A stretch of DNA of 38,723 bases from Candidatus Aenigmatarchaeota archaeon. GTDB taxonomy: Archaea > Aenigmatarchaeota > Aenigmatarchaeia > Aenigmatarchaeales > JACQIB01. The notes beneath the pieces are model-generated. The model saw only the letters and a list, made by a program, of their open reading frames with translations. It did not search any database and was not told the DNA's origin. The stretch is taken from NCBI GenBank assembly GCA_046760225.1, contig JBHIDR010000004.1:1-38723 (forward strand), given 5' to 3'. Positions 7,044 through 38,454 of the stretch are shown here, piece after piece. How positions within the stretch are numbered: the first letter of the stretch is position 1; the number at the start of each line of letters is the position of its first letter. The position numbers and the translations under genes are program-made.

Positions 7044-7132
7044 TGGTGCGCCCGGCGGGATTCGAACCCGCGTTACAAGCTTGGGAAGCCTATCCGAAAT
7101 TTCTTTGGATCCTACCACTAGATTACGGGCGC
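7044..7132 (-). tRNA. tRNA-Gly(CCC) with 15-nt intron at 29/30 (7090-7104), encoded CCA
   Basis: Spliced: GCGCCCG TA ATCT AGTGGTA GGAT C CAAGC TTCCCAA GCTTG TAAC GCGGG TTCGAAT CCCGC CGGGCGC ACCA. BHB ATCC-AA|A-GAAATTTC-GGAT-AG|G. Confidence 0.92.
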
Positions 7133-8757: not shown

Positions 8758-8844
8758 GGGCCCATAGTCTAGTGGTAGGACAATACCCTTACAGAGGCAT
8801 TAGGATAGGTATAGGTCCCAGTTCGATTCTGGGTGGGCCCACCA
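8758..8844 (+). tRNA. tRNA-Val(UAC) with 13-nt canonical 37/38 intron (8794-8806), encoded CCA
   Basis: GGGCCCA TA GTCT AGTGGTA GGAC A ATACC CTTACA|A GGTAT AGGT CCCAG TTCGATT CTGGG TGGGCCC ACCA; central helix CTTA/TAGG. Confidence 0.93.
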
Positions 8845-8848
8845 CTTA

Positions 8849-8975
8849 GGGCCCGTAGATCAATGGAAGATCGCAACCTTGGCATAGCGAAAGCGTCGAA
8901 GGTTGAGGTTCCGGGTTCGAGGCACTTCCCGAAGTGCACACGGACGGAAGTGAGAAATTCCCGGCGGGTCCACCA
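8849..8975 (+). tRNA. tRNA-Ala(GGC) with two introns (15 nt in anticodon loop, 38/39 favoured: 8886-8900; 37 nt at 59/60: 8922-8958), encoded CCA
   Basis: Acceptor GGGCCCG/CGGGTCC with G3:U70 Ala identity pair; anticodon stem CAACC/GGTTG; T-stem CCGGG/CCCGG; intron stem CACTTCC/GGAAGTG. Lies 4 nt after tRNA-Val (likely dicistronic). Confidence 0.9.
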
Positions 8976-23183: not shown

Positions 23184-23283
23184 TGGTGGGCCGGGGGAGA
23201 ATCGAACTCCCGATCCCTACCGTGTCAGGGTAGTGTCATTTGGTGAAGCTCCTGAAGAAGCTTTACCACTAGACCACCAGCCC
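23184..23283 (-). tRNA. tRNA-Val(GAC) with a ~23-24 nt D-loop intron (~23239-23263), encoded CCA
   Basis: GGGCTGG TG GTCT AGTGGTA[..]TGAC A CTACC CTGACAC GGTAG GGATC GGGAG TTCGATT CTCCC CCGGCCC ACCA; intron hairpin AGCTTC-TTCA-GGAGCT; exact junction ambiguous by 1-2 nt. Confidence 0.9.
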
Positions 23284-24599: not shown

Positions 24600-24634
24600 A
24601 ATAGAATTTGCTTTGAGGGGGTTAATAAAGAAAA

Positions 24635-24830
24635 TGGTGGGCGGGATGAGATTTGAACTCACGACTTCTAGACCGGTTTGGATTCCAGACCGGTTCACTA
24701 GTTGGCCTCGCCACTAGCTTTTCCAGCCAGTGCCTTATAAGACTTGCACGCAGTGCTTAGCGCTCTAATTGCCAAACGCTTGGGTTTCCTGGCTGAGCTT
24801 TGCGGGTCCGTTCGCACGAACTACCCGCCC
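24635..24830 (-). tRNA. tRNA-Ile(UAU) with five introns: 8/9 (24800-24822), 19/20 (24769-24787), 29/30 (24744-24757), 37/38 (24704-24735), 45/46 (24666-24695); encoded CCA
   Basis: Removing 23+19+14+32+30 nt from 196 nt gives a 78-nt cloverleaf: GGGCGGG TA GCTC AGCCAGGTTA GAGC G CTAGT CTTATAA ACTAG TGGTC GTGAG TTCAAAT CTCAT CCCGCCC ACCA. Each junction sits in a BHB-type motif. Confidence 0.88.
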
Positions 24831-24879
24831 TTATCCTCGCCCATGCTATTTTTATTGTTACGCACAGTAATTTAAAAAT

Positions 24880-25788
24880 ATGCTTAAGCATGGTCTTCTG
24901 GACAGGACAGAAAGAATACTGCAGGACGAGGGATATGTCACGTGCAGGTACAGGGGCTGCTTTGACATTGCAGCCAAAAAACACAGGCTGCTTTTCCTGA
25001 AGGTACTGCAGAACATTGACTCGTTTTCCGAGGAGCAGGCAAGGAACCTCAGCATACTGGCAAAGAACATGGCTGCAACCATGTTCCTCATAGGAGAGAA
25101 CACCACAAGGGAGAATCTCCAGGAAGGCATAGTTTATGAGAGGTTTGGCATTGCTGCTGTCTGCTTCGAGACATTCCGATTGTTCCTGAAGGAGGGCATA
25201 TTCCCAAGGATATACAGGAAGAGGGGAGGGCTGTTTGTGTCGATTAATAGGGACACTCTAAGGGAAATGAGGAAGAGCAGGGGGCTCACGCAGATGGAGC
25301 TTGCTGAAATGGTTGGCATAAGCAAGAAGGCAATATACGAGCATGAGGCAAGGAACCTGAAGATGCTGCTCTCAATAGCGCAAAGGATTGAGGACGTGCT
25401 TGAGAAAAAAATAATAAAAAATATTGATATTTCAAAGATTGGAGTTGGTGGGCAGGGCAAACCAGGTGACATGCTTGAGAAAAAGGTGGGCGGTGACCTG
25501 GAAAAGCTCGGGTTCAGCATAGACTTTGTGAAGCAGGCACCTGTTGACATTGTTGCGAAAAAGGAGGCGCTGCTCGTGTCAGACGTGGAGGCAGACAAGA
25601 AGAGGCTGAAGAAAAGGACAGAGGAGCTGAAGGGGTTCATAGGGGTGGCCCAGAAGCCTGCTGTTGTGATAACAGAGGACATAAAGGACAGGGACTCTGA
25701 AATACCCATAGTGCAGAGAAAAGAACTCGGTGAGATGAGTAGTAGGCGCCTATTTAAGATAGCCAAGAAAAGCAGAAAGTATAAATAG
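24880..25788 (+). CDS. archaeal Cro/C1-type HTH transcriptional regulator (COG1395-like)
   Basis: CFDIAAKK..LFLKVLQNIDS, GIVYERFGI, RGGLFVSIN, HTH RKSRGLTQMELAEMVGISKKAIYEHE, APVDIVA. Confidence 0.85.
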   Translation: MLKHGLLDRTERILQDEGYVTCRYRGCFDIAAKKHRLLFLKVLQNIDSFSEEQARNLSILAKNMAATMFLIGENTTRENLQEGIVYERFGIAAVCFETFRLFLKEGIFPRIYRKRGGLFVSINRDTLREMRKSRGLTQMELAEMVGISKKAIYEHEARNLKMLLSIAQRIEDVLEKKIIKNIDISKIGVGGQGKPGDMLEKKVGGDLEKLGFSIDFVKQAPVDIVAKKEALLVSDVEADKKRLKKRTEELKGFIGVAQKPAVVITEDIKDRDSEIPIVQRKELGEMSSRRLFKIAKKSRKYK

Positions 25789-37949: not shown

Positions 37950-37989
37950 TGTCAACACTGTTCTTTAGGAAAGAAAAGGATTTAAACCC

Positions 37990-38454
37990 TTACCTGTTCT
38001 CAAGAAGGAACTTTATTATTGATTCCTTTGGGACATCTTTCCATGGGATCCTGCCCTCTTCCATTAGGTATGACCAGTGCAGGCCATTGAAGTCCCTGAA
38101 ATAGTACAGGGCCTTGCTGTTCTGCTGCAGCTTCCTTATGAAGCTCTCGAGCGCCTTCTGCCTTTGTTTTGGCCACCTTTCCATTCCATAGAGGGGTGTC
38201 ACAAGTATTATGCCAATCTCGTTATGCCCTACCACCTCCCATTCCCTTATCTTCTGCTGCTCGGGTATTTTCCCTATGTAGAACAGCCCGAGGAACTTCT
38301 TGCGCTTTGTTGGGTGCCATCCTCCTGGCCATCCCCATTTCTCGAACCTGGACTGCAGCTCCCTGATTTGCAGGCCATGCTCCCTGGCCCATTCAGAAAT
38401 CTTGTCAAAACCGACTTTTGGCTTTACCAGTTTCAGCCCTGGATAGTCTCCCAT
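37990..38454 (-). CDS. hypothetical protein
   Basis: 154-aa Trp-rich ORF following an AT-rich gap. Confidence 0.65.
   Translation of the reverse strand: MGDYPGLKLVKPKVGFDKISEWAREHGLQIRELQSRFEKWGWPGGWHPTKRKKFLGLFYIGKIPEQQKIREWEVVGHNEIGIILVTPLYGMERWPKQRQKALESFIRKLQQNSKALYYFRDFNGLHWSYLMEEGRIPWKDVPKESIIKFLLENR

Follow-up and report, generated by a model that had tools for sequence, protein, structure and literature searches.

A tRNA-Ile(UAU) gene of an Aenigmatarchaeota archaeon that appears to be interrupted by five introns

The stretch of DNA that was analysed (hereafter the window; 38,723 nt from a Candidatus Aenigmatarchaeota archaeon) contains on its minus strand a segment of 196 nt (24830..24635). 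It opens with a 7-nt acceptor strand; at its other end stand a T arm, the acceptor strand that complements the first, A73 and CCA. Its neighbours are a divergently oriented gene for an HTH protein (24880-25788, plus) and a gene for a zinc-ribbon protein (24599-24324, minus). ARAGORN made no call at this position when run without introns and, when one intron was allowed, connected the same two gene ends into a tRNA-Phe with a 106-nt intron; Rfam gave no match at the locus at the gathering score, and a partial match of 19.2 bits below the cut-off (29). The original prediction had read the segment as a minus-strand tRNA gene of six exons and five introns, and we found its coordinates, exon sizes and intron share (118 of the 196 nt) to be correct (Table 1); three of the six exons measure only 8 nt. 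Removal of the five introns by script reproduced the fully paired 78-nt cloverleaf ending in CCA that had been claimed. Scored with ARAGORN, the joined exons were called as tRNA-Ile(tat) with all four stems paired, and this call and the paralog comparison described below together show that removal of the five introns restores a canonical cloverleaf with the conserved tRNA bases.

Table 1. Exons, introns and flanking elements of the putative tRNA-Ile(UAU) gene (window coordinates; intron positions in standard tRNA numbering)
Feature	Position	Strand	Remarks
TATA-box-like element TTTTTAAA	24871..24878	-	about 30 nt upstream of the leader decoy; putative promoter
Leader "spare acceptor strand" (decoy) GGGCGAGG	24835..24842	-	near-copy of acceptor nt 1-7, 12 to 5 bases upstream of nt 1
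Exon 1 (8 nt)	24823..24830	-	acceptor 5' strand and U8
Intron 1 (23 nt, 8/9)	24800..24822	-	central helix 4/4, 6-bp inner hairpin
Exon 2 (12 nt)	24788..24799	-	A9, D-stem 5' strand, D-loop to G19
Intron 2 (19 nt, 19/20)	24769..24787	-	central helix 4/4; 5 strain substitutions inside
Exon 3 (11 nt)	24758..24768	-	D-loop end, D-stem 3' strand, nt 26, nt 27-29
Intron 3 (14 nt, 29/30)	24744..24757	-	central helix 4/4, outer helix 3 bp; absent from 17/17 orthologs
Exon 4 (8 nt)	24736..24743	-	nt 30-37 including the anticodon UAU
Intron 4 (32 nt, canonical 37/38)	24704..24735	-	central helix 3/4, long inner hairpin
Exon 5 (8 nt)	24696..24703	-	nt 38-45
Intron 5 (30 nt, 45/46)	24666..24695	-	central helix 4/4, 6-bp inner hairpin; same-site intron in L008, L010, L013
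Exon 6 (31 nt)	24635..24665	-	nt 46-48, T arm, acceptor 3' strand, A73, encoded CCA
T-rich stretch right after CCA	24624..24634	-	likely transcription stop

All five junctions share a single register. The two strands of a 4-nt helix end two bases short of the cut and two bases short of the 3' end of the intron, respectively, so that two 3-nt bulges remain, each cut after its second base. Five BHB motifs are indeed present, including the one at 37/38 with its single mismatch (Table 1). The inner hairpins of introns 1 to 5 hold 6, 3, 2, 1 (then 8 beyond a mismatch) and 6 pairs, respectively, and the outer helices 0-3 bp, so that the motifs represent relaxed BHB forms. As a background, a fully paired central helix occurred in 1.8% and a helix with at least 3/4 pairs in 13% of 7854 arbitrary (start, end) pairs taken from the same precursor. 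We also observed that the 3' arm of the hairpin in intron 4 contains an 8-mer that is one base off exon 5; it provides an alternative partner for the anticodon stem, and both a competing four-intron solution (see below) and the 19-bit pseudo-tRNA match follow from it.

A custom solver, which removes BHB-compatible segments and tests the remainder for a cloverleaf, ranked the five-intron solution at the top for this precursor. Applied to 80 dinucleotide-preserving shuffles of the interior it reached the same score in one case and returned no solution in 24. Since one shuffle in 80 does equally well, assembly of a cloverleaf is by itself weak evidence, and for that reason the case for the gene rests on the paralog, the orthologs and the strain variant described hereafter.

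The genome contains a tRNA-Ile(GAU) paralog on contig C12 (3911-4008, minus; locus L113) with one intron. The 23 nt of that intron are identical to intron 1 of the UAU gene, and the same 14-nt leader lies ahead of it. Once spliced, the two genes agree at 66 of 78 positions. Of the 12 differences, 11 are confined to seven stem pairs, which are all standard pairs in both genes and of which four have had both bases replaced; the twelfth, and the only one outside a pair, is at anticodon base 34 (U versus G). The UAU anticodon is thus carried on a body close to that of the genome's own tRNA-Ile(GAU), as would be looked for in an AUA decoder. In a paralog-guided spliced alignment a path with three gaps was preferred (67/78 identity), which was rejected as it yields no cloverleaf. 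The two genes have in common a 57-nt module (14-nt leader, exon 1, intron 1 and exon 2; 96% identity) and have diverged outside it, and the comparison suggests that this 5' module was copied between them.

We searched 61 genomes of the class with the locus as query, and five genomes of the family with an ortholog as query. Seventeen tRNA-Ile(UAU) orthologs were parsed, five of them (L011, L013, L014, L015 and L022) by eye where the solver was wrong or failed. Orthologs with subsets of the introns, which the original prediction had named as a check on its reading, do exist: there is one intron in nine orthologs (L006, L007, L011, L012, L015, L019, L022, L023 and L108), two in five (L013, L014, L020, L021 and L105), three in L106 and four in L008 and L010. 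All 17 have an intron at or adjoining 37/38 and none was seen to have one at 29/30. The same-genus relative (L108), with its single intron, has the same neighbourhood and no leader copy, and members of the family of the host have two, three and four introns in this gene. No tRNA-Ile(UAU) was present in the regions L107, L109 and L112, and no ortholog was located in the genomes G005 and G006.

These orthologs allow the splice junctions to be compared directly with uninterrupted DNA. When 14-mers across the junctions of the UAU gene were sought as contiguous DNA in the orthologs, that of junction 1 was found exactly in three orthologs and with one mismatch in 11, that of junction 2 with one mismatch in four, that of junction 3 exactly in three (L011, L020 and L021) and with one mismatch in 10, and that of junction 5 with one mismatch in two (L020 and L021). 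Four of the five junctions (1, 2, 3 and 5) are therefore bridged by orthologs poorer in introns. The spliced product is identical to the mature ortholog sequences at 67-70 of 75 positions. The Rfam tRNA model scored single-intron orthologs at 55.5 and 58.6 bits but, across the seven loci to which it was applied, recognised no Ile(UAU) ortholog carrying two, three or four introns. Other inserts were seen as well, for instance one of about 170 nt with several hairpins in the D-loop of L014 (genome G043) and T-loop introns of about 60-70 nt in the family members L105 (G002) and L106 (G004).

The comparisons with paralog and orthologs bear on the question of whether the cloverleaf was pieced together by chance, as might be achieved, given enough freedom, with any 196 nt flanked by a genuine acceptor and T arm. 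The one shuffle that equals the score of the gene is in line with such an origin, as are the six- and seven-intron solutions that the solver returned in regions of 300-430 nt in a first census, which were false and were discarded. Shuffles, however, cannot provide an identity of 66/78 to a paralog with only the wobble base differing outside the stems, nor contiguous junctions in orthologs or the pattern of variation between strains (see below). We consider a chance assembly next to impossible; in our judgement, the ortholog junctions and the paralog comparison refute it.

A second solution concerns the number of introns. Here the intron at 37/38 is shorter and part of intron 4 is kept together with exon 5 as a variable region of 21 nt, resulting in a tRNA with four introns and a class-II-like variable arm. 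This solution has the same solver score and the same quality of the BHB motif at 37/38 (3/4), and draws on the near-copy of exon 5 inside intron 4. On the other hand, the paralog and the parsed orthologs have a variable loop of 5 nt (a 4-nt call in L011 was a misparse of the solver), the junction between exons 5 and 6 is contiguous with one mismatch in L020 and L021, and the long hairpin inside intron 4 would be broken up. The four-intron solution is for these reasons very unlikely, and we continue with five introns.

Variation between strains was also examined. Contigs from four DNA runs of one hydrothermal vent metagenome study were each identical to the window over 24642-24827 or more, and a second, co-occurring strain that covers 24642-24830 differs at 15 letters without any change in length. 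The 14 strain differences that are listed (of the 15) all fall in introns 2-5; of the 189 nt covered, 71 are exonic, and these contain no listed difference (P about 0.0014). Three of the changes affect the intron strand of central helices, where two convert a G-U pair to a Watson-Crick pair and one, in intron 2, creates an A-G mismatch. Overall, the exons are conserved and the introns are not, and the six-exon reading, the intron positions and the anticodon are borne out by the comparisons with paralog, orthologs and strain. The same data address a possible assembly artefact or chimera of several tRNA fragments. The genome was assembled from a metagenome in 83 contigs, and the 57-nt module shared with the paralog could mislead an assembler; yet the contigs of the four runs do not differ in a single letter, the divergent strain has the same layout without gaps, and the flanking genes are syntenic with those of the same-genus relative. 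An artefact can practically be dismissed.

With respect to splicing, we found that the five BHB cores have no base in common and can be accommodated in a single structure (-54.9 kcal/mol, as against -76.7 kcal/mol in the minimum-energy fold); competition for exon bases is confined to the outer helices, between introns 3 and 4 and between introns 4 and 5. None of the five central helices appears when the precursor is folded at minimum energy, and imposing all of them together costs +21.8 kcal/mol. Imposed one at a time, the motif of intron 5 costs +0.6, that of intron 2 +4.0, that of intron 4 +6.9, that of intron 3 +7.8 and that of intron 1 +8.8 kcal/mol, and these modelled costs shift modestly as other introns are removed. 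The original prediction held that splicing is probably ordered, with refolding between the steps, as the helices borrow exon bases from the acceptor stem, D arm and anticodon stem. Refolding away from the minimum-energy fold is indeed needed and the costs of the motifs differ, but the cores are free of overlap and can coexist in one structure, so that shared bases impose no order. The modelling suggests that splicing is modular and that its order is preferred rather than obligatory.

The machinery for the removal of BHB introns, EndA and RtcB, is encoded by the host (assembly of 851 kb, 44% G+C, 83% complete). Two EndA genes are located on contig C2, with a spacing of about 0.5 kb. The alpha-like EndA (L002:2332-2859) matches the catalytic subunit of Nanoarchaeum (3iey_A; E 4e-35), keeps the Tyr and the His and has a basic insert before the catalytic His; the second paralog is without the catalytic His and fits a structural beta subunit. 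By sequence, the pair agrees with a heteromeric endonuclease of broad specificity that has the DPANN insert, as described in the accessible text of PMC5829648. At the position of the canonical catalytic Lys (K156 of M. jannaschii by alignment) the alpha-like EndA has an Ala, and all 80 related Aenigmatarchaeota-type sequences (L025-L104) have Ala, Ser or Thr at this position; the residue that follows is Arg or Lys in 46 of these 80 and Asn in this host. A gene for the ligase RtcB is present on contig C35, and RNase P RNA was detected with 113 bits. The RtcB frame (C35:1400-1760; L003:1230-1760) is broken between GGIG and DINCG by an insert of about 32-35 nt with two TAG stops and a hairpin, and contains in addition an in-frame insert of 30 nt in the His-Gly-Tyr ... 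Pro-Ile-Gly-Gly motif. These inserts may be BHB introns in the ligase mRNA; no clean BHB could be fitted to them.

AUA is the commonest Ile codon of the host (59% of Ile codons, 44.5 per 1000 in 268 long ORFs). A domain search for TiaS_FLD gave no match in the 61 genomes of the class and a match in all four archaeal controls, and tRNA-Ile(UAU) genes are common across the genomes of the class. These sequence data suggest that AUA is read by a UAU anticodon throughout the class. Nanoarchaeum and Korarchaeum also decode AUA by a tRNA-Ile(UAU), without agmatidine. The gene models of the host include only one UAU gene, in a genome that is 83% complete. A tRNA with anticodon CAU, which may be either a Met or an Ile2 tRNA, lies on contig C16, and the lack of an agmatidine pathway and of another AUA decoder is to be read as provisional.

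A further alternative is that the locus is a pseudogene in decay, with so many insertions in the former tRNA gene that it is no longer spliced to a working tRNA. That the splice motifs do not appear in the minimum-energy fold of the precursor is compatible with decay, and another copy could be hidden in the missing part of the genome. Against decay, no mispair occurs in any stem and the paralog differs by compensatory changes, the exons are invariant between strains where the introns vary, and neither another UAU gene in the gene models nor a TiaS in the 61 genomes was found, yet AUA is used so heavily. A pseudogene is improbable, although less so than the four-intron solution. We consider it very probable, on the combined sequence evidence, that 24830..24635 is a functional tRNA-Ile(UAU) gene, the only AUA decoder found in this small DPANN archaeon, that is interrupted by five archaeal BHB introns. 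As the only decoder found for the commonest Ile codon, it would have to undergo five consecutive splicing events with high efficiency.

The features of the locus and host suggest how expression could proceed. Transcription would be driven by the TATA-like element, which is also found before orthologs at an equal distance from the conserved spacer, and would yield a leader of 18-20 nt. An endonuclease composed of the alpha-like EndA with its DPANN-type insert and the beta-like EndA without catalytic His would cut after the second bulge base, RtcB would seal the exons and RNase P would remove the leader. Each intron would be autonomous, with the upstream exon giving 4 helix nt and two bulge bases and the intron giving the other strand. 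From such autonomy it follows that exons could shrink to 8 nt (the minimum by the same logic being 7) and that no strict order of splicing would be needed. The helix of intron 1 would take acceptor nt 3-6, and the spare strand in the leader probably holds the 3' acceptor strand in the meantime.

The spare strand pairs with the 3' acceptor strand at 6/7 positions in the UAU gene. When four precursors interrupted at 8/9 or 9/10 were folded at minimum energy, the leader copy paired with the 3' acceptor strand and exon 1 with intron 1. The association was examined in 126 gene models from the host genome and related loci, after five models that were false by eye had been left out. All seven models with a junction at or before position 9, which are not fully independent (Ile-UAU from three genomes, Ile-GAU, Arg-UCU from two genomes and Phe-GAA), have in the leader, at -12 to -16, a 7-mer able to form 6/7 or more pairs with the 3' strand, and four of these pair 7/7; among the 119 other models 7/7 pairing occurs in none and 6/7 in five. 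With the native leader, the motif of intron 1 costs 2.7 instead of 8.8 kcal/mol in the model, a weak control as 18 of 30 shuffled leaders did equally well, compared with 5/30 for the GAU paralog and 3/30 for Arg-UCU (the G020 and G003 rows of this test were left out as the intron end was misplaced). The leader copy probably serves as a placeholder during the removal of intron 1. Besides that of the UAU gene, leader copies were seen at G000:C12, G000:C2, L008, L010, L088 and L124; where the copy differs from the true strand, the difference is often C to U, with G-U pairing kept. In a MAFFT alignment of the 8/9 introns the helices were not aligned. A full-text literature search and the accessible parts of the reviews yielded no mention of a spare acceptor strand in a tRNA leader.

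The statement in the original prediction that described tRNA genes contain about three introns at most agrees with the published record, as far as it is covered by the accessible portions of the papers. There, introns are given as "up to three" per tRNA gene (PMC8450103) or "a maximum of three introns" per tRNA gene (PMC4033280), and three are found in a tRNA of C. merolae (PMC3728597). A full-text search on tRNA genes with four or five introns, on DPANN and EndA and on Aenigmarchaeota gave no count above three within the openly available literature. Compared with the two or three per gene of the multiple-intron tRNAs in these sources, the count of five is two above the published maximum, and splicing follows the known mechanism. 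The gene is a record-size example of an established kind; what is new is the lineage, and the tRNA affected is essential and in heavy use.

The multi-intron tRNAs of the Thermoproteales, e.g. of Pyrobaculum calidifontis, likewise go together with a heteromeric endonuclease with a broad-specificity insert, and their introns differ among close relatives as they do here, according to what is accessible of PMC8450103, PMC4033280 and PMC4090602. In those accounts the maximum is three introns per gene, whereas the Aenigmatarchaeota tRNA-Ile(UAU) has five, and the insert of the endonuclease is a crenarchaeal loop, in contrast to the Nanoarchaeum-type insert of the DPANN host. The C. merolae gene belongs to the same isoacceptor and has several BHB introns including one at 37/38, and its order of removal was shown by experiment to be preferred and not fixed; it is, however, nuclear and eukaryotic, has its three introns in the D stem, at 37/38 and in the T loop, and was validated by RT-PCR, in contrast to the archaeal gene, which is predicted from DNA (PMC3728597, in the parts available). 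With the heterotetrameric endonuclease of Nanoarchaeum equitans (PDB 3iey) and the DPANN "L3" insert (PMC5829648, as excerpted) the alpha-like EndA of the host has the basic insert before the catalytic His in common; it differs in the Ala at the position of the canonical catalytic Lys. The decoding of AUA would be of the Nanoarchaeum/Korarchaeum type, with a UAU anticodon and no TiaS found, with the difference that here the decoder gene has more interruptions than any other tRNA gene that was found in the genome.

A broader model would have tRNA genes packed with self-contained intron modules, each relying on 6 nt of exon before and 1 nt after the intron, so that exons can be as short as 7-8 nt and no fixed order applies, with acceptor-proximal introns depending on a co-inherited spare strand in the leader, with an endonuclease clade that does without the canonical catalytic lysine, and with introns being gained and lost on a genus time scale, as the range of one to five within one family would imply. 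As a whole we put this model forward as a tentative one that is rather doubtful in its full extent. In DPANN, the present gene would raise the documented intron load per tRNA gene from three to five relative to the maximum in the accessible sources. The range from one to five introns across these orthologous genes, in which the same-genus relative has a single one, constitutes a natural experiment on intron gain, and the 8-nt exons and the leader decoy translate into testable rules for what the endonuclease needs.

Several other tRNA genes of this organism seem to be split. Rfam found 17 tRNA genes above the cut-off in the whole assembly. As it reported only these and missed both the UAU gene and, in the seven loci scanned, all multi-intron orthologs, annotations of such organisms, and inferences on the genetic code and on auxotrophy that are derived from them, will be systematically short of tRNAs. 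The tRNAs missing from DPANN genomes were attributed to undetected disrupted genes (PMC5829648, accessible text). Our census of gene models used the solver with strict anchors on regions up to about 260 nt, a setting that introns in the T arm and the acceptor stem escape. With solver and eye combined, candidate split genes were found at C2:34292-34469(-), C16:7985-8173(-), C16:9089-9281(-), C18:16738-16907(+), C6:21468-21595(+) and C16:3360-3599(-). They include candidate four-intron genes for Arg-UCU, a CAU tRNA and Lys-CUU, a candidate Leu-CAG gene with three or four introns, a Cys-GCA gene with three and one further gene with about three. Calls of six introns at C16:9089-9281 and C16:3360-3599 were false, and about four and about three introns, respectively, were seen by eye. 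Within the window, sub-threshold tRNA matches at 37967-38042 (minus; 24.7 bits) and 8849-8919 (plus; 22.7 bits) may represent further split tRNA genes, and the three tRNA genes that were detected there (7047-7132, 8758-8841 and 23187-23283) have one intron each.
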